64,000 nt of DNA, taken from NCBI GenBank assembly GCA_964587315.1, contig CAZPLW010000001.1, positions 55,374-119,373 on the forward strand. Direction: 5' to 3'. Below, piece by piece: positions 35,006 to 56,707 of this stretch (within the stretch, counting starts at the first letter, position 1; each line of letters starts with the position of its first letter). The translations under genes and the position numbers were made by a program. Below the pieces are notes generated by a model. It searched no databases. It saw only the letters and a list, made by a program, of their open reading frames with translations, and was not told the DNA's origin. This stretch comes from an uncultured Lysobacter sp. (GTDB lineage: Bacteria; Pseudomonadota; Gammaproteobacteria; Burkholderiales; Usitatibacteraceae).

Positions 35006-35821
35006 CTACCAGTGGAAGACCGCCGCGATCGCCGGCCCGTTGAAGGTCATGCTCTCGATCTTCTTGCCGGACTTCATGTCGTAGTCGAGATAGCGCCACG
35101 CGGCCACGACGTCGCCCCACTTGAACGAGTAGCCGATGCCGCCCATCGCCTGCCACGTGAGGTCCGATTCGCCGGTGCCGATGTCGACGTACCAGGGCAC
35201 GAACCACTTGCGCTCCTCGCCCAGGGCGAAGCGTCCCTTCGCGCCGACGATCGCATCCCAGTTGGAGATCTTCGCTTCCGACGTGCCCGCGCGGCTGCCC
35301 ACGGGAACCGAGGCGACGTTGCCGGTGATCTCGTACCCGAACGTCTGCTTCAGGTCGAAGAGTCGCGTGCCGCCGATGAGGTCGACCTTCATGGCCGGAT
35401 CGGAGGCGATGCGCCAGGTGCCCGCGAGTGTCCACGCCCAGCCCTTCAGGTCGTAGCTCACGTTGGCGTCGGCGCCGGCGGGAATGGGCGTGCCCCCGAG
35501 CGTGAAGTCGCGGAACCCGCTCTTGGTGTTGCCCAGGTCCATGTAGACGACGTCGGTGTACATGCCCCAGCGGCCGTTGCTCGCCTCGAGGTTCCCCATG
35601 AAAGTCATCTTCAGGCTGTCGAGGATCTTGCTCGAGTCCACCGTGCTGCTGCTTCCGCCGGAGCCGGCAGGGAAAGTCGTGGTCCCGCCGATGTCCGGCA
35701 GGTAGGCGTAGATCGAGCCCTGCCATTTCCAGGTGTCCGCGACCTGCGCGCGGGCGTCGGCGGACGACAGGGTGGCGAGGGCGCAGAGCGCCGCGGCCGT
35801 GAGCTTCATCGGTCTGTTCAT
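35006..35821 (-). CDS. Outer-membrane beta-barrel protein (unknown family)
   Basis: Signal peptide MNRPMKLTAAALCALATLSSADA, alternating beta pattern and a C-terminal ..GPAIAAVFHW aromatic terminus. Confidence 0.7.
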   Translation of the reverse strand: MNRPMKLTAAALCALATLSSADARAQVADTWKWQGSIYAYLPDIGGTTTFPAGSGGSSSTVDSSKILDSLKMTFMGNLEASNGRWGMYTDVVYMDLGNTKSGFRDFTLGGTPIPAGADANVSYDLKGWAWTLAGTWRIASDPAMKVDLIGGTRLFDLKQTFGYEITGNVASVPVGSRAGTSEAKISNWDAIVGAKGRFALGEERKWFVPWYVDIGTGESDLTWQAMGGIGYSFKWGDVVAAWRYLDYDMKSGKKIESMTFNGPAIAAVFHW

Positions 35822-35859
35822 GGTCTGCTCCTCGCGGGCGGGATCGATCCCGCCTCCGG

Positions 35860-36324
35860 TTACTTGATGGTGTAGCCCTTGCCCTCGAGGCACGCGGCGC
35901 GCGCCTTCTGGTAGGCCTGCTGGCCCGCGCTCTGCTGCTGCGAGGCCTGCTGTTGCTGCTGCTGCGAAGCCGCCTGGTTCTGCTTGCGGCTCGCGCTGCG
36001 GGCCACGACCGCGCCGGCCGCGGCGCCGGAACTCGCGTCGCCGCCGACCACCTCGCCCACGACCGCACCCTTCGCCGCGCCGCGCACGCCGGCGCCCGGC
36101 GTCGTGCCGGTCGCCGTCGTCGGGGGCTTGGCGGCCTGCGGGGGCGGCGGCGGATTGGCCGGGTCGTACTTCGACTGCTCGACCGCCCACGTGTGGCAGG
36201 CGCCCTCGTCCTTCTTCTGCTGGTCGGACGTCTGGCCCTTGGCGGGGTACACGAACTGCTGCGCGACGGCGCTGGCGGCGAAGGCCGTCGCGACGATCGC
36301 GGCAAGAAGCGCGGGGGTTCTCAT
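35860..36324 (-). CDS. Small secreted glycine-zipper / Gln-rich protein
   Basis: AAGGAG RBS before MRTPALL and a signal peptide. GAGVRGAAKGAVVGEVVGGDASSGAAAGAVVA is a Gly-zipper, a poly-Q tract follows, and paired Cys residues flank it (GACHTW .. ACLEGKGYTIK). Confidence 0.6.
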   Translation of the reverse strand: MRTPALLAAIVATAFAASAVAQQFVYPAKGQTSDQQKKDEGACHTWAVEQSKYDPANPPPPPQAAKPPTTATGTTPGAGVRGAAKGAVVGEVVGGDASSGAAAGAVVARSASRKQNQAASQQQQQQASQQQSAGQQAYQKARAACLEGKGYTIK

Positions 36325-36335
36325 CGATTTCTCCT

Positions 36336-37304
36336 TCATTGCGGGGCCTTGGCCCATGTCTTGTCGGGATTGAACAGCTTCATCGCGGCCGCGAGCCGGG
36401 CGGTATCGCTGCCCAGGTCCTTCTCGAAGACCACGCCGTCGTGGTTCACGACGAAGGTCTTCACGCCGGAATTGCGGTAGCTGGCGGGCCAGGCGACGAT
36501 CGCGAAGCCGCCGAAGAGCTTGCCCTTCACGAGGTAGTCGTAGGCGCCGCCCGGGGCGTCCTTGCCCTGCGCGGTGAGGATGCGGAAGTAGTAGCCGTGA
36601 TAGGGCATGGGCTTCGCGTCCTTCTTCCCGGCGCCGTACCCTTCGCTCACGGCCTTCGCGGCCAGCGGGCCCAGCGGGCTCGCGGGCTCGCCTGCCTTCG
36701 TCTCCCAGTACAGCCCGTCCTTCTTGCCCGGCGTCGAGCGGATGCGCGCCGCGTAGTGGTGCAGGCCGTCGCCGTCGGCGTCCCGCGCGGCGTACTCGCG
36801 CTGCGCGTCCACGGCGGCCAGCAGGGTCTGGATCGTGTCGAGCTCGTTGCGGCCCACGCGGCGGTTCATGACTTCCTCGCGCCCCGCGTCCGCGTCGAAC
36901 GCCCACTTGTCGCCCTTCTTCACGAGCGGCGCCGGAAAGGGCCAGTCGTCGCCGATGACCAGGATCGCCTTGGCGTCGCCCTCCTTCGCGAGCCGGTTCT
37001 TCGCGTCGTAGCCCGCGAGGAATTTCTTCCAGTCCGACGCGTCCGCGACGCGGTCGCCGGTGAAGAGCCAGCTGCGGGACTTCGGGCCGATCACCGCGAC
37101 CATGCCCTCCACGTCGCTCGCGCGCACCGCCTCGACGAGGGCCTTCACGGCCTCCTCGGGCGTCGCGAACGACTTCTGGACCGCGGCCTTGGGCGCGGCT
37201 TTCGCCGCCGGGGCATTCTTCTGGTCCTGCGCGAGGGCGCCGCCGCCGGCGATCGCGATCGCGGCTCCGGCCAGGACGCCGGCCATCCATCTCGTCGTAT
37301 TCAT
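36336..37304 (-). CDS. DUF2950 domain protein (copy A)
   Basis: Signal peptide, then FATPEEAVKALVEAV..VGRNELDTIQTLLAAVDAQREYA..GLYWETKAGEPASPLGPL..YHGYYFRILTAQG..FAIVAWPASYRNSGVKTFVVNHDGVVFEKDLG. Its start shares one nt with the DUF3300 stop (TGATG). Confidence 0.85.
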   Translation of the reverse strand: MNTTRWMAGVLAGAAIAIAGGGALAQDQKNAPAAKAAPKAAVQKSFATPEEAVKALVEAVRASDVEGMVAVIGPKSRSWLFTGDRVADASDWKKFLAGYDAKNRLAKEGDAKAILVIGDDWPFPAPLVKKGDKWAFDADAGREEVMNRRVGRNELDTIQTLLAAVDAQREYAARDADGDGLHHYAARIRSTPGKKDGLYWETKAGEPASPLGPLAAKAVSEGYGAGKKDAKPMPYHGYYFRILTAQGKDAPGGAYDYLVKGKLFGGFAIVAWPASYRNSGVKTFVVNHDGVVFEKDLGSDTARLAAAMKLFNPDKTWAKAPQ

Positions 37305-38521
37305 CAGCGTCTCCCTCCGCCACTTCGACCACCGCCGCCACCGGCACCGCGGCTCGAGGCGCCCCGGCTGCTGGCCGCCTGCGTGGATGCGCCCGAACCC
37401 GCGCCGGAGAATCCGCCGCTGGAACCGGAGCGCGAACTGGCCGCGGACGTCGAGGCCGACGGCGAACGCGAAGCCCCGGCCCCGGCATCGCGGGAACCCG
37501 CGCCCGCACCCGTCGTGCTGGCCGACGGCGAACGGCCGGCTCCCGCATCGCGAGCACCGGCACCCGCCGCCTGCGTCGAGGCGCCGGCCTGTTCCCGCCC
37601 GCGGTACTGGTCGCGGGCCTGCGCCGACTGGGCGTTCGCGCCCTTGCCGTACTGCGAGGCCGCCGCCTGGTTGCCGTAGGGAACGCCCTTGCGGGATGCC
37701 GTGTTGTGCTGGAAGTTGTTGTTCTGGATGTTGGTCTTGTTGAAGTTGTTGTAGTTGTTCACGTTCACGTTCACGTTGTTGCCGCCCCAGTTGCAGTTGC
37801 CCCAGATGGCGGCGCCTACCACCACGCCGGTGGCGAACGCGAGGCCGGGCGGATAAACGTACGCGGGCGGATACATCGAATAGGGCGGGTACGGATACGG
37901 CCACGTGCCGTAGACCGTCGCCGGGTTGTAGGTCGGGACGTAGACCACCTCCGGCTTCGGGGACTCGATGATGTAGACGGTCTGGCTGCCTTGCTGCTCC
38001 GTCTTCACCGTCTGCTCCGGCGTCGACTTGAGGTTGCCCGCCTTCTGCGCCTTGGCGCGCAGCGACTGGACCGTCGTCATCACGGCCTTCTGGTCCGCGA
38101 GGAAGGCATCGCCCAGCTTCTGCGTCCAGGTGAGGTTCTCGTTCATGTGCCCGAGCACCTTGGGCACGGCGGTGAGCGCCTTCACGGCCGGGTCCCACGC
38201 CTGCTTCTGCATCGCGTCCTCGAGCGCCTTGTCCTTCACGCCCGGGTTGGCCTTCGACCAGCGCGCCGCCTCGACGACCTCGAGCGGGTAGGTGGAGGCC
38301 ATGAGGATCTGCGCGACGAGCGCATCGGGATACAGCGCGATCGGCGCGAGGAGCTGGTCGAGCTCCTGCTGCGGGATGGCGGCGACCGGCGCGGCGGTGC
38401 CCGGTGGCGGCGCGGCGGCGCCCGGCGGCGGTGTGGCGGGTTGCTGGCCCCACGCCGGGAAGGCGCCCATGAGGAGCGCCACGGCCAGGGTCCGGTATCG
38501 GGAGGGGGTCGATTTCGTCAT
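37304..38521 (-). CDS. DUF3300 domain protein (copy A) with a Gly/Ser/Arg-rich C-terminal tail
   Basis: Signal peptide, then QQELDQLLAPIALYPDALVAQILMASTYPLEVVEAARW..KQAWDPAVKALTAVP, which is the DUF3300 core. The last ~110 aa are low complexity. Confidence 0.85.
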   Translation of the reverse strand: MTKSTPSRYRTLAVALLMGAFPAWGQQPATPPPGAAAPPPGTAAPVAAIPQQELDQLLAPIALYPDALVAQILMASTYPLEVVEAARWSKANPGVKDKALEDAMQKQAWDPAVKALTAVPKVLGHMNENLTWTQKLGDAFLADQKAVMTTVQSLRAKAQKAGNLKSTPEQTVKTEQQGSQTVYIIESPKPEVVYVPTYNPATVYGTWPYPYPPYSMYPPAYVYPPGLAFATGVVVGAAIWGNCNWGGNNVNVNVNNYNNFNKTNIQNNNFQHNTASRKGVPYGNQAAASQYGKGANAQSAQARDQYRGREQAGASTQAAGAGARDAGAGRSPSASTTGAGAGSRDAGAGASRSPSASTSAASSRSGSSGGFSGAGSGASTQAASSRGASSRGAGGGGGRSGGGRR

Positions 38522-38717
38522 CTTCGCTTCCTGGCCGGCTCGGGACATCGCCGGAAAAGAGACTGCGATCGGACTTGCGGCGGGAACATCCCGGCGCGGG
38601 CATCGCGCCGTCGAAATCATCTCATGGCGCCGGTGGCGGAAAAGGCGCGCCGCCCCGCGAAAGCGAGACGGCGCAAGTCACCGGGGTACCGGGGAACGGC
38701 GATCGCGCCGATCGGGG

Positions 38718-39281
38718 TCAGAAGCGGAAATCCACCCCGACGAGGTAGCTGTCGACCTCGATCTTGTCGTTCTTCATCCACTCGGCGAACAGGCCGACGT
38801 TCTTCGAGAAGAGATACCGCGCGCCGATGCCGTAGGTGGCACCGGTCTGCTTGTCCGACTCGCCGGCCGTGAAGTTCGCCGTGTTGGCGTTGGCCTTGAT
38901 CTCGGACTCCTCGATGCCGATTCGCCCATAGATCTCGAAGTTCTGGGCAACCGGCGCGATGCCGACGGCCGAGATGCCGAAGGACTTGGCCTTGGCCGAG
39001 CCGCTCACGTCGATGTTGCCCGAGCGGCCGCTGAACGTGTACTTGCCCAGGTCGTAGTAGCCGACCTCGACCGCGAAGTTCGGATGGAACCGGTAACCGC
39101 CGCGGATGGTGTAGGTCTTGTCGCTGTCGTCGATGGTCGCGTCCTGCAGGCCGGTGATGTCCTGGCCGGTCTTGCCGAGGCTGCCGATGCCCGCGCCGAA
39201 TCCGACGTACCAGCTCTGGGCGAACGCGGGGGCGGACACGAGGCCCGCGGCCAATGCGACGGCGGTGATGATCTTCTTCAT
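38718..39281 (-). CDS. Small outer-membrane beta-barrel protein (OmpA-N / OMP_b-brl type)
   Basis: AAGGAG RBS and signal peptide MKKIITAVALAAGLVSAPAFA. QSWYVGFGAGIG.. and terminal YLVGVDFRF are typical of an 8-stranded barrel. Confidence 0.75.
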   Translation of the reverse strand: MKKIITAVALAAGLVSAPAFAQSWYVGFGAGIGSLGKTGQDITGLQDATIDDSDKTYTIRGGYRFHPNFAVEVGYYDLGKYTFSGRSGNIDVSGSAKAKSFGISAVGIAPVAQNFEIYGRIGIEESEIKANANTANFTAGESDKQTGATYGIGARYLFSKNVGLFAEWMKNDKIEVDSYLVGVDFRF

Positions 39282-39344
39282 GGTGCTACTCCTTGCGTGA
39301 GCGGATAGGTTTGCCACGGGTGCGTGAAACGTGCGCGAAGGCTT

Positions 39345-39995
39345 CTACTTGGCCTTCGGCGCTTCAGTCTTGGGCGCGGCGGCCTTCGGGGCGGGGGCCT
39401 TCGCGGCCGGCTCGACGCTGAGCGCGAGGGCTTCCGTGTACTTCACCTCGACCTGGTCGCCCTTCTTCACCACCTTGAACTGCTCGGGATTGCGCACGTC
39501 GAGCGTCACGACCTTGCCCTTCGGGCCCTTGAGCGTGATGGTCTTCTTGGCGGAATCGACGTCGGTCACCTCGGCGATGGCGGTGACCTGCCGGGCGCCT
39601 GCGACGGCGGGCTTCTCGCCCGGCTTCGCCTTCGCCGCTTCTTCGCGGACCGTCGGCTCGCCGGCCGCGACCTTGGTCTTCTTCAGCTCGAGCGAGAGGG
39701 CCTCGACGTAGCGAACGACGACGGAGTCGCCGACCTTGATCTGGTCGAAGTTCTTCACATCGAGACCGGCGACGATGTCGCTCGTCTCGCCGTTGGGGCG
39801 CTTGAGCGACACGGTGCGGGTCGCCTTGTCGATCGCGACCACCAGGGCCGTGGCCTCGACGGCGTTGACGGCCGTGGCCTTGCCGGGTTCGCTCTTCAAC
39901 GCGGAACCGCCGGTGACGCCGGGTTGCTGGGCAATGGCCGCCGTGGCGAAAAGCGCGGCGGCAATGGCGATCGAGAGGCGGGTCTGGGTCTTCAT
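39345..39995 (-). CDS. Secreted protein made of two tandem homologous ~60-aa domains, Lys/Ala/Pro tail
   Basis: Signal peptide. Domain 1 is VVAIDKATRTVSLKRPNGETSDIVAGLDVKNFDQIKVGDSVVVRYVEALSLEL. Domain 2 is IAEVTDVDSAKKTITLKGPKGKVVTLDVRNPEQFKVVKKGDQVEVKYTEALALSV. Confidence 0.65.
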   Translation of the reverse strand: MKTQTRLSIAIAAALFATAAIAQQPGVTGGSALKSEPGKATAVNAVEATALVVAIDKATRTVSLKRPNGETSDIVAGLDVKNFDQIKVGDSVVVRYVEALSLELKKTKVAAGEPTVREEAAKAKPGEKPAVAGARQVTAIAEVTDVDSAKKTITLKGPKGKVVTLDVRNPEQFKVVKKGDQVEVKYTEALALSVEPAAKAPAPKAAAPKTEAPKAK

Positions 39996-48187: not shown

Positions 48188-48834
48188 AGACCGTCCTCGC
48201 CGCCGCGCTCGTGCTGGCATCGCTCGGTGCCGCGTCCGCCTTCGCCGACGATGCGGCGATGCCCGGCCGCCGCGCCTCGCCGCCCTCGAAGGAGCCGTGG
48301 GAATTCGCGATCACGGCCTATCCGACGCAGGTGCGCGGCGGCGACAGCACCACCTCCGCCATCGCGGCGGCCGACCGCGGTCCGCTGCATCTCGAGGCGC
48401 GCTACGGCTACGAGACGAAGGATTCGCGCTCGGCCTTCGCGGGCTGGACGTTCTCGGGCGGGGAGACGGTGACGTGGGAACTCACGCCCCTCCTGGGCGG
48501 CGGGTGGGGGCCGGTGAAGGCCTTCATCCCCGGGTTCGAGGCGAGCCTCGGCTGGGGCAAGTTCGACTTCTATGTCGAGGCCGAATTCGTGCGCGACCGG
48601 AACGACAGCGCCGCCAATTACAACTATGCCTGGAGCGAGCTGGGCTTCAAGGCGGCCGAGTGGCTGCGGATCGGCGCCGTCGGCCAGCGCACGAAACTCT
48701 ACGGCGGCGAGCGCGAGTTCCAGCGCGGGCCCTTCGTGCAGGTGACCTGGAAGCGCGCGACCTTCGGCGCCTTCTGGTTCAACCCGGGATCGAGCGAGCA
48801 GGTGTTCGTCGGCGCGATCGGCGTCGCGTTCTAG
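48184..48834 (+). CDS. Secreted hypothetical protein, probably a beta-barrel
   Basis: ATGA overlap with the upstream gene. Signal peptide MKTVLAAALVLASLGAASAFA, beta-strand alternation and an aromatic C-terminus (GAIGVAF). Confidence 0.6.
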   Translation: MKTVLAAALVLASLGAASAFADDAAMPGRRASPPSKEPWEFAITAYPTQVRGGDSTTSAIAAADRGPLHLEARYGYETKDSRSAFAGWTFSGGETVTWELTPLLGGGWGPVKAFIPGFEASLGWGKFDFYVEAEFVRDRNDSAANYNYAWSELGFKAAEWLRIGAVGQRTKLYGGEREFQRGPFVQVTWKRATFGAFWFNPGSSEQVFVGAIGVAF

Positions 48835-49709
48835 TCGCGCTGCAGGTCCGCGCCCGACCGGCGCCGCCACACCATGTACGGGACGACGGTGAGCGCCGAG
48901 ACGAGCAGGTAGGCCACGATCACCGCATAGATGGGCGAGGCCGCGTTGTTGAGCGAGGCCACGAGCAGCGCGAGGCCCGGATTGCGCGCCGCCGCGGTGA
49001 TGGCCACGGCCGTTCGCGTGCCCGGCTCCGGCCCGCCCAGCAGCTGGCCCATGGCGAGCGCGCCGAGGGTGACGAGGACGATGGCGACCCCCACCTTCGT
49101 GCCCGCCAGCAGGACGAGCGGGAACATCTCGACGACGGCGAGGATGGCGAGCACGAGGAGCAACGCGGTCCCCGCGGGCGAGAGCTTCGCCTCCAGCCAC
49201 GCGGCGCCCGACGCGGTGAAGTGGCGCACGAGCATGCCCAGACCCAGCGGCAGCAACTGCGCCATGCAAACCTGCTTGGCGAGCGGCCAGGGCTCGATGG
49301 CGGCGCTTCCGCCGTAGTACTCGTTGAGCCCCGCGATCGACAGCGGCATCGACACCACCGCGAGGATCGCCACCGAGATCTGCAGTCCCGGCGCGAAGGC
49401 CTTGTGCCCGCCCGACTTGAGCGACTTGCGCAGCGCCACCGGCGCGCCCGGCGAGACGGCCATGAGCACGAGGCCCACCTCCGCCAGGCGCGGGAGCCCG
49501 AGCGCGTGGGCGACGAGGATCGCCAGCGCCGGCACGGCGACCAGCACCGCGAAGAGCGCCTTCAGCATGATTCCCGGCCGGCGCCAGATCCAGCGGAATT
49601 CGCCGAACGCGACGCCCAGGCCGATCGAGAACATGACCGTGAACACCGTCGCCATCGCGACGGCGGCGAGGAGCCAGTCCGGGACGACCCCGGTCATCCC
49701 GGCGGGCAT
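48831..49709 (-). CDS. Bile acid:Na+ symporter (BASS/SBF-like) family membrane protein
   Basis: Polytopic. LMAVSPGAPVA.. and TAVAITAAARNPGLAL resemble SBF-like cores. Confidence 0.55.
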   Translation of the reverse strand: MPAGMTGVVPDWLLAAVAMATVFTVMFSIGLGVAFGEFRWIWRRPGIMLKALFAVLVAVPALAILVAHALGLPRLAEVGLVLMAVSPGAPVALRKSLKSGGHKAFAPGLQISVAILAVVSMPLSIAGLNEYYGGSAAIEPWPLAKQVCMAQLLPLGLGMLVRHFTASGAAWLEAKLSPAGTALLLVLAILAVVEMFPLVLLAGTKVGVAIVLVTLGALAMGQLLGGPEPGTRTAVAITAAARNPGLALLVASLNNAASPIYAVIVAYLLVSALTVVPYMVWRRRSGADLQRD

Positions 49710-49714
49710 GGGCG

Positions 49715-50725
49715 CTAGATCAGGAGCCGCTTGGCTTCGGCGAACACGTCGCGGGCGCGGATCGCGTCGCGGGGAATGGCGATGGGCAGCACGACGATGG
49801 CCTGGCCGCCCGAGTTGCGCACCTCCACGAGGTCGAGCTGCACCGTCGTGCCGCCGGGCTCGTCCTGGCGGATGCCCAGGCGGTCCATGAGGATGGAGAG
49901 CGGCTGCGCGAAGAGCTGTTCCGGCGCCTTGTCGAGCGTCTCCACGAGGATGTCGAGGTGGCGCGGCAGCGTCGCGGCGCCCGTGCCCGTGGCCACGAGG
50001 TCCCGCTCGATCTGCGCGAGCTTCGCCTCGAGCGTGGCCGCGTCCGCGCTCTCGCCGGACTCGCCGCCCGCGAGGCCGAAATTGGACGACTGCAGCGCCC
50101 GCACCTTGGCCTTGAGCACCGACTGGCCGGCCTCGAGCGCCTCGCGCTCCTTGCTCGCCAGGGTGATCTGCGTGAGGGCCCGGGTGAGGATCTGGTCGAA
50201 CGCGCGGCGCATGACGAGACGGCGGTTCTCCTCCGCGCTCGCCTGCGGCTCGAGCAGGCGGTGCTTGTCGAAGCTCACCTGCACCTGCGAGACCTCGCGC
50301 TGCAGGTGCTCGCCCTGCATCGCCATGCCGAGCACCTTCTTCTCCGTGCGCTCGACGACGAGGAGCGCGTACACGGGATCGGCGCCGCCCTGGGGGCTCT
50401 CGAGGAAATCGAGGAGCGCGCGGTCGGCGCCGAAGACCTCCGCCATGCGCGCGGGCGAGGCGAAGAACGAGGCGAGGCGATCGTCCTCGCCGTAGGTGCG
50501 CGCGCTGGCCTCCACGGGGGCCGGCAGCGCGCCCACCAGCGCGATGACGTGGTCGATGGCCTTCACGACGGCGGGCTCGAGGCGCTTCCGGTGCCCGGAG
50601 ATCGAGCGCAGGCGCGGATCGGTGGCGTCGAGGGCGCGGTCGATGGCCGCCTCGATCACGATCCGGTCGTAGAGGGCGTTGCCCGCCGGCTTCGCGCCGA
50701 AGAGGGACTGGAAGAGCTTCAGCAT
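49715..50725 (-). CDS. Hypothetical cytoplasmic protein with a central coiled coil
   Basis: Coherent coding frame with start MLKLFQSLFG. No TM segment or signal peptide, and no family recognised. It lies 5 bp upstream of the BASS-like gene. Confidence 0.6.
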   Translation of the reverse strand: MLKLFQSLFGAKPAGNALYDRIVIEAAIDRALDATDPRLRSISGHRKRLEPAVVKAIDHVIALVGALPAPVEASARTYGEDDRLASFFASPARMAEVFGADRALLDFLESPQGGADPVYALLVVERTEKKVLGMAMQGEHLQREVSQVQVSFDKHRLLEPQASAEENRRLVMRRAFDQILTRALTQITLASKEREALEAGQSVLKAKVRALQSSNFGLAGGESGESADAATLEAKLAQIERDLVATGTGAATLPRHLDILVETLDKAPEQLFAQPLSILMDRLGIRQDEPGGTTVQLDLVEVRNSGGQAIVVLPIAIPRDAIRARDVFAEAKRLLI

Positions 50726-50878
50726 GGGTCCCCCATCAGGCCACGGCTCGCGAGCCGGCGTCAATTCGTGCCGATGCGGCATTTCTTGACGGGCGACAAA
50801 TGGCGGGTCGATTCACGCCGGCCGCGGTGACACAATGGGCGGGTGAGCCCCGCGCATCGCGGGGCGAAGGAGGATTCC

Positions 50879-52338: not shown

Positions 52339-53487
52339 CTAGCGCCAGGCGCTCCCCATGATGAGGTAGACCGCCTTGTCCTCGGGGCCGCGCGCCACGT
52401 CGATGCCCACGCGCATCCCGAGCGCCCGCGTGAGCAGGTAGCGGAACCCCACGCCGACGGTCGTGCGCGAGGGCTCGTCGCGCAGCGCCGAGTTCGAACC
52501 GGCCGCCCGGCCCGCGCCCGCGAAGCCCACGAGCGACCAGCGCCCGTCGAGGTTCCAGCGCCCCTCGATCTCGGCGAGGGCGACGCGGTCGCCCTGGTAG
52601 CGCATCGCCGGGATGCCGCGCAGCTCGATGAAGGGACGCGCGTAGAACGGCGCGTCGCCGTCGACGGCTTGCACGTCGGCGCGAAGGCCCACGACGAGCG
52701 AATCGCCGACCGGGTGGAAGCCCTGCAGCGCGAGGCGCGAGCGGGTGAACTCGTAGTCGCTGCCGAGCGAGGGCGCGAACCGGATCGCCTCGAAGTAGGC
52801 GCGAAGCCCGGCATTGGGCGTAAAGATGTTGTCGCGCCCGTCGTACTCCACCACCGGGCCCAGGCCCGACATCGCGGCGTCGAGGTCGGCCCGCGGCGGC
52901 TCCGGGGAGCCGTCCCGCGCGAACTTCACCTTCACGTTCGAGCCCATGTAGCGAAGGCCCGCCCACCACTCCGTATCGCCGAAGCGCCGGCGCACGTCCG
53001 CCACGGCGAGCGAGCCATCGAGGTTCACGTCGCGCCCGTCCGCGGTGGCGCCGGTGCCGATGCCGGGCGTGCCGTACCAGGCGAGGTTGATCGAGCCGCG
53101 CGCCAATCCGGCGAGGTAGCGCCAGCGCCGGCCCTCGCTGAAGCCCAGGTGGCCGATGCCGCCGCCCTTCGTGCCGTTCTCCGTGCCGAACGCGGCGCCG
53201 GCCGTGATGTCGGGCGGCTCGAACGTGCGTACGCCCGCGGGACTCGGCGGGGCATCCGGGTTTCGATGGAAGAAGAGAAGCGCCGCGCCACCGCCGTAGC
53301 CGATCGCGGGCTCGGTGATGACGATGGGGACCGGCAGGAAGCCCTTGCGCTCGAGGAGCCAGCGGCTGGCGTCCAGGCGGCCATCGACCGGATCGCGGAA
53401 GATCTCGTCGTCCCAGGGGGCGGCGGACGAGGCGGCGGGAGCCAGCGCGGTGAGCGCGGCGAGCCCCGCCAGGCGAAGCGACTTCAA
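52339..53487 (-). CDS. Omp85 (BamA/TamA)-superfamily outer-membrane barrel lacking obvious POTRA domains
   Basis: TTG start overlapping the upstream stop (TTGA) and a signal peptide. FIELRGIPAMRYQGDRVALAEIEGRW..GVGFRYLLTRALGMRVGIDVARGPED resembles the surface-antigen barrel C-terminus. Confidence 0.65.
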   Translation of the reverse strand: MKSLRLAGLAALTALAPAASSAAPWDDEIFRDPVDGRLDASRWLLERKGFLPVPIVITEPAIGYGGGAALLFFHRNPDAPPSPAGVRTFEPPDITAGAAFGTENGTKGGGIGHLGFSEGRRWRYLAGLARGSINLAWYGTPGIGTGATADGRDVNLDGSLAVADVRRRFGDTEWWAGLRYMGSNVKVKFARDGSPEPPRADLDAAMSGLGPVVEYDGRDNIFTPNAGLRAYFEAIRFAPSLGSDYEFTRSRLALQGFHPVGDSLVVGLRADVQAVDGDAPFYARPFIELRGIPAMRYQGDRVALAEIEGRWNLDGRWSLVGFAGAGRAAGSNSALRDEPSRTTVGVGFRYLLTRALGMRVGIDVARGPEDKAVYLIMGSAWR

Positions 53488-54047
53488 TTCAGCTCGGTGT
53501 CCTTGTAGTACTTGGTGCCCTTGGCGGTGAGCTCGGCGGCGAGCCCGTCGTCGGTGAGCTGGTAGAGCCAGACGCCCGGCGAGATGGACATCGCGCCGGC
53601 ATAGACCTCCGAGCCCTTGCCGCTCACCTGGGCCGAGGCGGTGGCCTGCGCGCCCAGTTCCCAGCCGGCGTTGATGAACTTGTCCAGGTCGGACTGCTTC
53701 TCGAAGACCCAGACCAGACGGAACTTCTTCACGCCGACGCCCAGGCCCGCCTGGACCTCGACCATCTTCATGAAGGTCTCCTTCTTCGCCTTGCGGTTCA
53801 CGGCGAGGCCGGACCCCGAGCCGCCGCCCGCGAAGAGGATCTTCATGCCGAAATTGCTGAAGACCGCGTAGCCGGCGGAGCGCTCGATGGCGTCCTTCGC
53901 GTGGGGCTGCGACTTGTAGAGGCGCTGGAGCGTGTTCTCCGTGACGTCGCGCACGTCCTGGCGCTTCTCTTCCACCGAGGCCGCGAAGGCCGGCCCGCCC
54001 AGCGCGAGCACGGCGGCGAGGCAAAGCGATGCGATGCGGGGGTTCAT
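53484..54047 (-). CDS. Secreted SYLF (DUF500/Ysc84-like) domain protein (tentative)
   Basis: Signal peptide, then SAGYAVFSNFGMKILFAGGGSGSGLAV..QAGLGVGVKKFRLVWVF..WELGAQATASAQ..GVWLYQLTDDGLAAELTAKGTKYY follows the SYLF pattern as I recall it. ATGA overlap with DUF2950. Confidence 0.5.
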   Translation of the reverse strand: MNPRIASLCLAAVLALGGPAFAASVEEKRQDVRDVTENTLQRLYKSQPHAKDAIERSAGYAVFSNFGMKILFAGGGSGSGLAVNRKAKKETFMKMVEVQAGLGVGVKKFRLVWVFEKQSDLDKFINAGWELGAQATASAQVSGKGSEVYAGAMSISPGVWLYQLTDDGLAAELTAKGTKYYKDTELN

Positions 54048-55042
54048 TGGGGAGCCTTTTTCCAGCGCTTGTCGGGATCGAAGCGCGTCAACTTTCCGGC
54101 GACGGCCGCCGTGTCCTTGCCCAGATCCGCCTCGTAGACCACGCCGTCGTGGTTCACGATGAAGGACATCACGCCCGAGACGCCGTACTTGGCCGGGTAC
54201 GCGACGACCGCGAAGCCGCCGAAGAGCATGCCGTTCACCAGGTAATCGTACTTGCCGCCCGGCGCGAAGCCGCCCTGGCCCGTGAGGATGCGGAAGTAGT
54301 ACCCGTTGTAGGGTGCGGGCTGGCCACTGGCCAGCTTCCCCTTGCCGTAGCCCTTTTCCGCCGCCCGGGCCACCAGGGGGCCGAGCGGGCTCTGCGGCTC
54401 GCCGGACTTCGTCTCCCAGTACAGGCCGTCCTTCTTGCCGGAGGTCGAAAGCAGGCGCGCGGCGTAATTGCGCACGCCGTTGCCGTCCGAATCGTTGGCC
54501 GCGTACTCGCGCTGCGCGTCCACGATGGCGAGCAGCGTCTGGATGGTGTCGAGCTCGTTGCGGCCCACGCGGCGGTTGGTGATCTCCTCGCGGCCGGCCT
54601 CGGCATCGAAGGCCCAGGCGCTGCCGCGCTTCACGATCGGCGCGGCGAACGGGTAGTCGTCCTTGCCGACGACGAGGGTCGCCTTGGCGTCGCCGTCCTT
54701 CACGAGCGCGTTCTTCTCGTCGTAGGCGGCGGCGAAGCGCTTCCAGGCGTTGGCGTCGGCCACCTTGTCGCCGGTGAAGATCCAGCTGCGCGAGGCGGGG
54801 CCCACGACACCGACGAGCGCGTCCACGTCGGCGGCCTTCACCGCATCCACGAGGGCCTTGGCGGCCTCCTCGGGCGTGGCGAAGGTGCGCTGCTTGGCCG
54901 GGGCTTTCTTCGGCGCCGCGGCGGCCGGCTTGGCGGCGGCCTTGGCTTCGGGGGCCGCCTGCGCGTGGGCGCCGGCGGACAGGGTCAGGGTGAACGCCGC
55001 GGCGAGCGAGGCGACGATCGGGGTCAGCTTGTTCATGTTCAT
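54044..55042 (-). CDS. DUF2950 domain protein (copy B)
   Basis: Paralog of 36336..37304 (FATPEEAAKALVDAV..VGRNELDTIQTLLAIVDAQREYA..GLYWETKSGEPQSPLGPL..YNGYYFRILTGQG..SFIVNHDGVVYEADLG). Confidence 0.85.
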   Translation of the reverse strand: MNMNKLTPIVASLAAAFTLTLSAGAHAQAAPEAKAAAKPAAAAPKKAPAKQRTFATPEEAAKALVDAVKAADVDALVGVVGPASRSWIFTGDKVADANAWKRFAAAYDEKNALVKDGDAKATLVVGKDDYPFAAPIVKRGSAWAFDAEAGREEITNRRVGRNELDTIQTLLAIVDAQREYAANDSDGNGVRNYAARLLSTSGKKDGLYWETKSGEPQSPLGPLVARAAEKGYGKGKLASGQPAPYNGYYFRILTGQGGFAPGGKYDYLVNGMLFGGFAVVAYPAKYGVSGVMSFIVNHDGVVYEADLGKDTAAVAGKLTRFDPDKRWKKAPQ

Positions 55043-55066
55043 GGTCTCCGTGTCCTGGGGTATGGG

Positions 55067-56359
55067 TCAGCCGCGACGTCCGCCGCCACGCCCACCGCCG
55101 CCACCACCGGCACCGCCGCCACCGCCCATCGAGGACCGGCTCGAACTGCCGCGCGAACTCGCGTCGCGCGTCGAGGCGCCGGACCCGGACCCGGAGAATC
55201 CGCCGCCGCCACCGCCCTGGCGGGTTGAGGCCCCACCTCCGCCCATGTCGCGGCTGCCGGTGCTCGCCGACCCGCGCGAGCCCATGCCCTGCGTGTTGGC
55301 CTGGGCGGCGCGGTTGCCCGCGTCGCGACCGCCGGCGTCGCGGCTGCCCGCGCTGGCGCGATCGGCCTGCGAGACGCGGTCGTTCAGCTGGCCCTTGTCC
55401 ATGGATTTCAACTCCCCGCGTCCCTGCTCGGCGTGACCCCGGAACTGCTCGCGAGACTGCGCGGCCTTCGCGTCGCCGCCGCGGTTGTACTTCTGCGCGG
55501 TGGCGTTGTCGCGGTAGCTCACGCCCTTGCGGTGGTCGGCGTTGTGCTGGAAGTTGTTGTTCTGGAGGTTCGTCCGGTTGAAGTTGTTGTAGTTGTTCCG
55601 GTTGATGTTGATCTCGTTGCCGCCCCAGTTGCAGCCGCCCCAGATGGCCGCGCCCACGAAGACGCCGGTGGCGAACGCGACGCCCGGCGCGTAGACGTAT
55701 CCGGGCGGATACATGTAGTACGGCGGATACGAGTACCACCAGGAACCGTAGACGACCGACGGGTTGTACGTCGGCACGTAGACCGTCTCGGGCTTGGCGG
55801 ACTCGATGATGTAGACCGTCTTGTTCTCGACGGTCTCCGTCTTCACGTTCTGCTCGGGCGTCGTCTTCAGGTTGCCCGCGGCCTGGGCCTTGGCGCGAAG
55901 CGACTGGACCGTCGCCATCACCGGCTTCTGGTCGACGAGAAAGGCGTCGCCCAGCTTCTGCGTCCAGGAGAGGTTCTCGTTCATCTGCTTGAGCACCTGG
56001 GGCACGGCGGTGAGCGCCTTCACGGCCGGGTCCCACGCCTGCTTCTGCATCGCGTCCTCGAGCGCCTTGTCCTTCACGCCCGGGTTGGCCTTCGACCAGC
56101 GCGCCGCCTCGACGACCTCGAGCGGGTAGGTGGAGGCCATGAGGATCTGGGCGATGAGCGCGTCCGGATAGAGCGCGATCGGCGCGAGGAGCTGGTCGAG
56201 CTCCTGCTGGCTGACGGCGGCGGCGGGTGCGGCAGCGGGTGTCGTGGCCGGCGCGGCAGCCGGGGCGGGGGCCGGAGCCTGGCCCTGGACGACGGGCATC
56301 ACGAGGCAGGCGGAAACGGCCAAAGCGAGCGCGCGGGAAGAGCGAGCGGTAAGGGACAT
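55067..56359 (-). CDS. DUF3300 domain protein (copy B) with a Gly/Ser/Arg-rich tail
   Basis: Paralog of 37304..38521. The N-terminal domain is nearly identical (QQELDQLLAPIALYPDALIAQILMASTYPLEVVEAARW...). Start taken at MSLTARSS. Confidence 0.85.
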   Translation of the reverse strand: MSLTARSSRALALAVSACLVMPVVQGQAPAPAPAAAPATTPAAAPAAAVSQQELDQLLAPIALYPDALIAQILMASTYPLEVVEAARWSKANPGVKDKALEDAMQKQAWDPAVKALTAVPQVLKQMNENLSWTQKLGDAFLVDQKPVMATVQSLRAKAQAAGNLKTTPEQNVKTETVENKTVYIIESAKPETVYVPTYNPSVVYGSWWYSYPPYYMYPPGYVYAPGVAFATGVFVGAAIWGGCNWGGNEININRNNYNNFNRTNLQNNNFQHNADHRKGVSYRDNATAQKYNRGGDAKAAQSREQFRGHAEQGRGELKSMDKGQLNDRVSQADRASAGSRDAGGRDAGNRAAQANTQGMGSRGSASTGSRDMGGGGASTRQGGGGGGFSGSGSGASTRDASSRGSSSRSSMGGGGGAGGGGGGRGGGRRG

Positions 56360-56434
56360 TTTTCGTTCTCGCAGCGTGGGGAACACCCATTGTACCCGCC
56401 GGCCGGATGTCCCCCTACGCGGGGCCGGGCGGGT

Positions 56435-56707
56435 TCAGTCGCGGATGCGCGCGCCCTTGATCGTGCCCTTGGGCAGGGTCGCTTCCTTCCAGAAGGCGCC
56501 CGCGGGACCGCGCAGGGCCATGTACTTGATGTTGGCGACCGGGAAGATGAGCAGCCCCCCGTCGGAATCGATGACGAGGTGCTTCGCCGCCAGGAAATCG
56601 GCCACCTTCATCTGCTTGGCGGCCGTGTTGGCGGCCTGTTCGGGAAAGTCGAAGGAGAGCTTGCTGCCGTCGACGAAATGGATGGTGAGGATGCGGTCGT
56701 TCTGCAC
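56435..56707 (-). CDS. Small hypothetical protein (90 aa, GTG start)
   Basis: GGAG RBS 8 nt upstream of the GTG and coding-like composition. It lies 75 bp upstream of DUF3300 copy B on the same strand. Confidence 0.5.

Follow-up and report, generated by a model that had tools for sequence, protein, structure and literature searches.

The question raised by this locus is what kind of unit is formed by four envelope-protein genes on the minus strand of a 64,000-nucleotide (nt) stretch of contig CAZPLW010000001.1, referred to here as the window. These genes encode a DUF3300 protein (gene B), a DUF2950 protein (gene C), a SYLF-domain protein (gene D), and an Omp85 barrel without POTRA domains (gene E), the letters A to F being assigned in 5' to 3' order along the minus strand. 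Genes B–E formed a compact same-strand unit of four exported envelope proteins. Their families were adjacent far more often than expected by chance, in several arrangements and lineages, with no obligate partner. The operon brings known but uncharacterised parts together in a new combination. It represents one arrangement among several in a mosaic neighbourhood of envelope genes, which was not found described in the literature searched. An earlier note on this DNA had held that the set was not an operon type with a name, and the literature search, which found no description of such a neighbourhood, agreed with this. Among the papers listed in that search, none mentioned SYLF together with Omp85 or BamA.

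Anatomy of the operon and its products

The operon region had a G+C content of 70% and contained the following genes (aa, amino acids).

56435-56707, minus strand: gene A, GTG start, 90 aa, without a signal peptide or a named family
55067-56359, minus strand: gene B, DUF3300 protein, ATG start, 430 aa, PF11737
54044-55042, minus strand: gene C, DUF2950 protein, 332 aa, PF11453
53484-54047, minus strand: gene D, SYLF protein, ATG start, 187 aa, PF04366
52339-53487, minus strand: gene E, POTRA-less Omp85 barrel, TTG start, 382 aa, PF01103
51786-52316, minus strand: gene F, GNAT N-acetyltransferase, 176 aa, cytoplasmic, PF13302 and PF00583

The stop codon TGA of C and the start codon ATG of D share the ATGA at 54044-54047, and the stop codon TGA of D and the start codon TTG of E share the TTGA at 53484-53487; these overlaps, and the other coordinates given in the earlier note, were confirmed exactly. 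The intergenic gaps were 75 base pairs (bp) between A and B, 24 bp between B and C, and 22 bp between E and F. The tight coupling claimed for the whole set was borne out at C/D and D/E, whereas B and C lie close together without overlap, and across relatives the coupling is facultative. Each of the proteins B, C, D, and E starts with a signal peptide of the Sec type, as read from the sequences. Genes B–E very probably constitute a real envelope operon.

Gene A is divergent from metX-metW, and gene F is convergent with a PPK2 gene. The GNAT gene was absent from the gene list of the earlier note. No significant terminator was found between E and F in the scan, and promoter and terminator scans of the locus gave counts no higher than in shuffled sequence and did not place the transcript ends. 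Because the gap is 22 bp and no convincing terminator follows E, gene F is probably on the same transcript as E. In the whole 64-kb window, no tRNA genes were found and no Rfam family reached its gathering threshold.

Gene B was assigned to DUF3300 with an E-value of 4e-86 (288.5 bits, cut-off 25). The protein starts with a signal peptide and a helical N-terminal domain, which are followed by an aromatic and Pro-rich stretch. Residues 222-243 form a glycine-zipper-like hydrophobic segment, and the tail of 168 aa is rich in Gly, Ser, Ala, and Arg with a terminal GGGRRG. The segment followed by a tail with a GGGRR(R) end was shared by most of 14 DUF3300 proteins from other loci, which included copies from a Planctomycetia metagenome-assembled genome (MAG) and a Paraburkholderia plasmid. 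Gene C, directly downstream of the DUF3300 gene, was assigned to DUF2950 with an E-value of 1e-112 (376.3 bits, cut-off 20.2). It carries a signal peptide and an Ala/Pro/Lys linker, and its AlphaFold2 (AF2) model (predicted local distance difference test, pLDDT, of 75) consisted of an NTF2-like domain, a long helix, and then a beta-sheet. The Foldseek matches of this model were weak and included the minor type IV pilins ComP and PilX and the NTF2-like structure 3gwr. A sequence search of solved structures found no relative of DUF3300 or DUF2950. The pair had about 7000 homologues in the searches, and the literature on either family was scant in a full-text search.

The product of gene D had looked like a secreted SYLF/DUF500 lipid-binding domain in the earlier note, and three matches agreed on the SYLF domain. 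It matched the Ysc84/SYLF family PF04366 with 28.2 bits (cut-off 25.1) and the solved SYLF structures of BefA (7rfq, E 2.6e-20, residues 25-186) and BPSL1445 (7ofn, E 4e-11). The concern that the product of 53484-54047 might be a member of another well-characterised family was settled in favour of a clear SYLF protein. The type I signal peptide of D ends in ...GGPAFA/AS and has no lipobox, and the protein scored 63.9 bits against the BPSL1445 equivalog model of NCBIfam (NF049970), below its cut-off of 200. Judged from these sequence features, D is not a BPSL1445-type lipoprotein. Homologues of D numbered 6570, the best 120 being 65-93% identical.

For gene E, the earlier reading of the terminal gene as an Omp85 barrel with no obvious POTRA repeats was upheld by Pfam, the AF2 model, and Foldseek alike. 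The TTG codon was the sole start that gave a signal peptide, and it agreed with the N-termini of homologues and with the 382-aa protein recorded for the contig. E matched the Omp85 family PF01103 with 31.6 bits (cut-off 24), with only residues 206-275 matched, and scored 52.9 bits against the NCBIfam model Omp85_fam, short of its cut-off of 200. The AF2 model, built on 92 homologues, contained 16 strands, with a pLDDT of 89 and a predicted template modelling score (pTM) of 0.85. The signal peptide ends at about residue 23 and strand 1 starts from residue 50, and the approximately 25 residues between them are too few to accommodate a POTRA domain. No POTRA domain was matched in E with Pfam or present in the AF2 model, which separates E from the POTRA-bearing Omp85 proteins BamA, TamA, and TpsB.

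When the model was compared with the PDB using Foldseek, the best match was TamA (4c00, E 4e-11), followed by BamA and Sam50. There were 112 matches at E<=1e-3, and all 50 listed were TamA, BamA/BAM, or Sam50 (SAM). Residues Arg290 and Gly291 were invariant in the 92 sequences and lie within F-I-E-L-R-G-I-P in predicted loop 6, between strands 11 and 12. The loop-6 Arg-Gly motif, (V/I)RG(F/Y), is thereby present in E, with Ile after the Gly where the motif has Phe or Tyr.

Predicted from the model to be a barrel without an N-terminal functional domain, E corresponds to a class that is already named 'noNterm Omp85'. The name dates from 2014 (Heinz & Lithgow, PMC4104836), and the Leptospira proteins LIC12252/12254/12258 were studied in 2024 (PMC11358297). 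No DUF5982 region was matched in E with Pfam at E<=0.1, and E does not belong to the subgroup defined by that region. Its own subgroup has the N-terminal motif D-P-x-D-G-x-x-D-x-S-x-W-L-L-x-x-K-G-F-L-P-V-P and the C-terminal end W-R. The barrel family had over 1000 homologues, about 380 aa in length, and occurred in Beta-, Gamma-, and Deltaproteobacteria, Bdellovibrio, Planctomycetia, Verrucomicrobia, and Lentisphaeria. A distant relative of E was seen in Klebsiella aerogenes NCTC10006 (L174:3385-5534), where the gene of a 337-aa unnamed protein overlaps that of a 379-aa POTRA-less 'OMA87' barrel by 4 bp, and the pair is inserted between yidA and dgo genes.

Rearranged neighbourhoods of the operon families

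The neighbourhoods were compared in two surveys, one of 80 genome loci centred on the barrel, with SYLF genes counted within 5 kb, and one of 80 metagenome loci built around members of the D-type SYLF subfamily (60-85% identity), where many contigs were shorter than 3 kb. The synteny in relatives was kept in part as an identical order and in part as rearrangements. The order B-C-D-E, followed by the GNAT gene where present, recurred in L004 (barrel 85% identical) and L047. The order in L008 was D, D' (a second SYLF gene), a glycine-zipper gene, B, C, and E; in L012 and L103, E was divergent from D, followed by B-C; and L177 had A, B, C, D, a helical protein, and E. A Planctomycetia MAG (L060) had E-B-C, with no SYLF gene in the stretch searched.

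A SYLF gene was found within 5 kb of the barrel in 12 of the 80 barrel-centred loci. Assuming 1-3 SYLF genes per 4-5 Mb, less than one case would be expected by chance in the approximately 1 Mb examined. SYLF-barrel pairs ranged from Betaproteobacteria to Desulfobacterota, and such pairs without B-C occurred in Desulfobacterota/Deltaproteobacteria MAGs (L031, L050, L052, and L074) and in other MAGs. A true DUF3300-DUF2950 pair was present in five and a homologue of a 271-aa barrel, described below, in seven of the barrel-centred loci.

At least one partner of this network was found in 37 of the 80 SYLF-centred loci, and in 14 of the 20 that had at least 1.5 kb on both sides of the SYLF gene. 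The partners were a glycine-zipper protein (14 loci), the 271-aa barrel (12), a helical 167-aa protein (8), and barrel E (3). DUF3300 was present in eight and DUF2950 in six; either or both occurred in about ten loci, in the orders D-B-C and C-D.

These data bear on the idea that two unrelated units, a DUF3300-DUF2950 pair and a SYLF-barrel pair (plus the GNAT gene), were juxtaposed by a lineage-specific rearrangement. Each family was mostly found without the others, the same-order arrangement was confined to close relatives, and local rearrangement among relatives was evident, with L004, L084, L092, L176, and L177 all differing. However, SYLF adjoined DUF3300-DUF2950 in those approximately ten independent and mostly short metagenome contigs, and all four genes occurred together in at least three different arrangements. 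In addition, the ATGA overlap spans C/D, the supposed boundary of the two units, and a second module in the window has the same slot structure. We consider a mere juxtaposition unlikely, and the four products are probably linked functionally.

The second module, module A, was found when B and C were searched against the window by tblastn, which gave paralogues at 36336-38521 with 72% and 69% identity, respectively. It lies 17 kb from the B-E operon and contains the following genes.

within 35006-39995, minus strand: 216-aa secreted protein, at the start of module A
38718-39281, minus strand: OmpA-like small barrel, preceding DUF3300'
37304-38521, minus strand: DUF3300', 72% identical to B
36336-37304, minus strand: DUF2950', 69% identical to C, with a 1-nt TGATG overlap with DUF3300'
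35860-36339, minus strand: 159-aa glycine-zipper protein, with an ATGA overlap with DUF2950'
35006-35821, minus strand: 271-aa unnamed outer-membrane barrel with a C-terminal FHW

Both modules follow one plan, a DUF3300-DUF2950 core, an ATGA-coupled small exported protein, and an outer-membrane barrel. In module A, the glycine-zipper protein occupies the SYLF slot and the 271-aa barrel the Omp85 slot. Neither of these two proteins had a Pfam or NCBIfam name, and homologues of both flank D-type SYLF genes in other loci.

Across the surveys, the operon families were also exchanged for a few other unnamed envelope proteins. Two of these are the kinds found in module A (the 271-aa barrel and the 159-aa glycine-zipper protein), and the others are a 167-aa helical protein and an arylsulfatase. 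The 167-aa protein, which had no Pfam or NCBIfam match, is predicted to be periplasmic and formed a conserved trio with the 271-aa barrel and a D-type SYLF protein in L086:5145-7085 and L087:4003-5976. In L047 and L177, a homologue of it separates SYLF from the barrel.

The arylsulfatase suggests another reading, in which sulfated or anionic substrates would be taken up or processed, with the barrel as their outer-membrane channel, the SYLF protein as their binder in the periplasm, and both supplying an arylsulfatase-type pathway; the window would be a variant without the enzyme. The gene of a 783-aa arylsulfatase was directly upstream of a D-type SYLF gene in at least ten metagenome loci, in the order sulfatase, glycine-zipper, SYLF in L107, L116, L131, and L132, and also upstream of SYLF in L084 (with a CSPTR signature), L110, L117, L120, L124, and L130. 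In L176:1457-5255, a sulfatase gene separates SYLF from the barrel gene (4-bp overlap), which is followed by a homologue of gene A. Sulfatase genes also adjoined the barrel or were close to it in L042 and in Pseudoalteromonas (L091). However, no sulfatase gene is in or next to the B-E operon, and the link is one of adjacency. In addition, barrels of the Omp85 type are not known to serve as channels for nutrients. This pathway is possible at other loci but highly improbable for the window.

Further genes of the window also moved among these neighbourhoods.

49715-50782, minus strand: conserved 355-aa cytoplasmic protein, no Pfam or NCBIfam name
48831-49709, minus strand: SBF-family transporter, adjoining the gene of the 355-aa protein

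A homologue of the 355-aa protein is encoded directly after SYLF in L092 and before the barrel in L003/L005, so that among relatives the region stands out as a hot spot of rearrangement.

The 90-aa open reading frame that had been noted 75 bp upstream of DUF3300 proved to belong to a conserved protein family. Its G+C content at third codon positions (GC3) was 0.92 and coding-like, and a library of 1.8 billion proteins contained homologues in 93 cluster representatives at E<=1e-3, most of those listed being about 85-90 aa in length. Gene A is a real gene because of its coding-like GC3 and these representatives of similar length. It had no Pfam or NCBIfam name. Copies next to DUF3300 were found directly upstream in L092 (78% identical) and upstream in L177 (56%), and in L176 a 58% identical copy comes directly after the barrel. 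Gene A probably either leads the unit or has an accessory part in it.

Gene A was absent from L004, the closest relative, where DNA homology to the window reaches no further than 46 bp ahead of the DUF3300 start codon. There, a 1340-aa repeat protein (L004:24-4046) with an IPTL-CTERM-like end (VPTLSP, a hydrophobic stretch, and RRR) replaces gene A and metX upstream of DUF3300. A role of gene A as partner of the divergent metX was also considered, and was weakened by L176, in which the A homologue follows the barrel, and by L084, in which metX occurs without A. The GNAT gene follows the barrel in L004 and is nearby in L006, L007, L008, L047, L084, and L177; its linkage with PPK2 appears to be lineage-level synteny only.

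A possible role at the outer membrane

The explanation that we favour, at about even confidence, is that the operon represents one variant arrangement of a modular system for envelope maintenance. The core pair would be DUF3300-DUF2950, with DUF3300 held in a membrane via its Gly-rich segment and DUF2950 as its periplasmic partner. The SYLF protein would bind anionic lipid at the periplasmic face of a membrane, and the POTRA-less barrel may provide an outer-membrane site for docking of the assembly, or for lipid or protein handling. The most likely role would be outer-membrane lipid and barrier homeostasis under envelope stress, in preference to general outer-membrane protein assembly or classical secretion. 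The specific lipid-docking mechanism is possible but doubtful.

The lipid and barrier theme was drawn from the lipid binding of BefA, from EipA, from the patatin-type neighbours of SYLF and of the barrel, and from the link of yacH with CpxR and protamine. According to the BefA preprint, BefA binds phosphatidylserine and cardiolipin and permeabilises vesicles, and anionic phospholipid binding has been reported for BefA, BPSL1445, and eukaryotic SYLF proteins (bioRxiv 10.1101/2022.03.24.485696). EipA, which is SYLF-like in structure, is required for envelope integrity in Brucella (PMC10787603). The E. coli DUF3300 gene yacH is regulated by CpxR, and its deletion alters survival with protamine (PMC9600279).

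The patatin neighbours were seen in two loci. In Roseateles violae (L002:4193-7029, = L029), the gene of a 190-aa SYLF protein is directly upstream of and co-directional with that of a 728-aa patatin-Omp85 protein (PlpD-like). This pair lies about 1 kb from a POTRA-less barrel and represents a second type of pairing between SYLF and the Omp85 family. On the Vibrio alfacsensis plasmid pYa108 (L175:1897-5119), three genes stand in a row on one strand: that of a patatin-like phospholipase, that of a TRIC channel protein, and that of a POTRA-less 'BamA/TamA family' barrel, with the patatin gene two genes from the barrel.

Several observations weigh against the favoured explanation. About 56 of the 80 barrel-centred loci had none of the partners described, barrel E was found in only three of the 80 SYLF-centred loci, and the close relative L092 has metW-metX followed by A-B-C-D without a barrel. 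Typical DUF3300-DUF2950 pairs stand alone, as in Rhodobacter and Paraburkholderia replicons, and the patatin and sulfatase links are anecdotal. At the level of the proteins, the hydrophobic segment of DUF3300 is borderline as a transmembrane helix (Kyte-Doolittle 1.1-1.9). The pilin-like match of DUF2950 is weak (Foldseek E 0.02-0.2), and no fold family is claimed for it. In addition, the lipid-binding arginine of BefA seems to be aligned with Asp120 of D in the HMMER alignment, in which the numbering is uncertain, and this arginine may thus be missing from D.

The same observations on the barrel bear on whether D and E are a dedicated export pair, in which a barrel pore resembling those of two-partner secretion (TPS) sends the SYLF protein to the surface or medium as a BefA-like permeabilising effector, with DUF3300-DUF2950 as mere neighbours. 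The translational coupling of D and E through the TTGA overlap and the SYLF-barrel adjacency in several phyla are consistent with such a pair. Members of the Omp85 family such as FhaC export a partner that is encoded next door. However, barrel E has no POTRA domain, which TpsB uses for cargo recognition, and no TPS domain was found in D with Pfam. The scarcity of the barrel near D-type SYLF genes and its absence from the A-B-C-D locus of L092 also argue against a dedicated exporter. BefA itself is present in culture supernatants and permeabilises membranes, as an export pair would have it, but with BefA as a heterologous protein in E. coli Nissle, secretion takes place with no partner dedicated to it (bioRxiv 10.1101/2022.03.24.485696). 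In the preprint, a term search found no mention of an operon or gene neighbours of BefA. A dedicated export pair is given a low probability.

Another possible client of the barrel is the DUF3300-type tail. The barrel would then anchor the Gly-zipper segment and the Gly/Ser/Arg tail in the outer membrane or thread them through it, with a similar 838-aa secreted protein as a further client, and SYLF and DUF2950 would be periplasmic helpers. The gene of the 838-aa protein is directly upstream of the barrel in 11 loci (L063:4398-6914, L009, L010, L020, L026, L034, L042, L058, L066, L069, and L070), and the copy in L063 has an aromatic and Gly-rich segment and a G/S/N/R tail ending in GGGGFRRR. This recalls the GGGRR(R) end after the Gly-zipper-like segment in most of the DUF3300 proteins examined. 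Furthermore, a true DUF3300 is near the barrel in five further loci, including the Planctomycetia MAG without SYLF in the stretch searched. Against this, the likeness is limited to low-complexity sequence. A single-pass phmmer search with the DUF3300 domain gave one marginal match (E 4e-4) in the aromatic and Gly-rich stretch, the 838-aa protein had no DUF3300 domain with Pfam and no NCBIfam match, and most DUF3300 genes have no barrel nearby. An iterated DUF3300 hidden Markov model, run on six-frame open reading frames, linked the 838-aa proteins to DUF3300 and was discounted as drift; the resemblance is kept as a lead only. We regard the tail as an improbable client, and return to envelope maintenance as the favoured role of the operon.

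In a broader form of the modular reading, which we put forward tentatively and with more doubt than the explanation above, the operon may belong to a widespread unrecognised system. This system would combine the highly conserved SYLF subfamily and DUF3300-DUF2950 with interchangeable barrels (POTRA-less Omp85 or 271-aa) and accessories (the glycine-zipper, helical 167-aa, arylsulfatase, and 90-aa gene A proteins) as a periplasm-to-outer-membrane machine for anionic lipids or polymers. If this is true, it would be the first physiological role for POTRA-less Omp85 and bacterial SYLF proteins. With the recurrent, shuffled co-encoding and the few alternative partners, four puzzles that stood apart become a single hypothesis, open to test, on the maintenance of the outer membrane and periplasm. 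A true link to anionic lipids or cationic peptides would bear on outer-membrane lipid homeostasis and on the role of BefA-like proteins, which are known for host-cell effects, inside the bacteria that produce them.

Comparison with known systems

Co-location of DUF3300 and DUF2950 has been reported before. A 2015 survey described the two families as always co-located, with signal peptides and induction in nodule transcriptomes, and found 'no other hints' in the gene neighbourhood (PMC4653623). When the operon was compared with this rhizobial candidate pair of 'plant interaction determinants' and with E. coli YacH, the same Pfam families were recognised, and the upstream position of DUF3300 and the signal peptides of the pair were shared. 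Unlike the pair elsewhere, the core is extended here by SYLF and the Omp85 barrel in the B-E operon (module B), and by the glycine-zipper protein and the 271-aa barrel in module A.

When compared with BefA and BPSL1445, D shared the SYLF domain over nearly the whole mature protein. D is single-domain and secreted, and its length is typical of bacterial SYLF proteins (about 190 aa). The three N-terminal helices of BefA are missing from D, and BPSL1445 is a lipoprotein, whereas D has no lipobox.

A neighbouring or fused pair of an Omp85 barrel and a lipid-active or secreted partner is also found in TPS (TpsA/TpsB) and PlpD-type systems, as here. These systems have POTRA, TPS, or patatin domains, whereas the window genes have none. 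Membership in two-partner secretion was rejected because no TPS or POTRA match was found in the five proteins with Pfam and no POTRA domain in the barrel model. Membership in the PlpD or type Vd group was rejected because no patatin domain was found in the window genes with Pfam, the patatin domain being limited to the neighbouring gene in Roseateles violae.

The NCBI name of the homologues of E is 'BamA/TamA family outer membrane protein'. E shares with TamA and BamA, its best structural matches, the 16 strands and the loop-6 Arg-Gly motif, but it differs from them in its missing POTRA domains and in a sequence identity of 11-17%. No TamB, AsmA-like, or Bam lipoprotein genes were found near gene E. 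The Leptospira and Bacteroidetes subgroup of noNterm Omp85 is marked by the DUF5982 region, whereas E carries an N-terminal motif of its own. With the noNterm Omp85 class as a whole, E has in common the 16-stranded barrel, the short N-terminal stretch, and the variable gene neighbourhoods.

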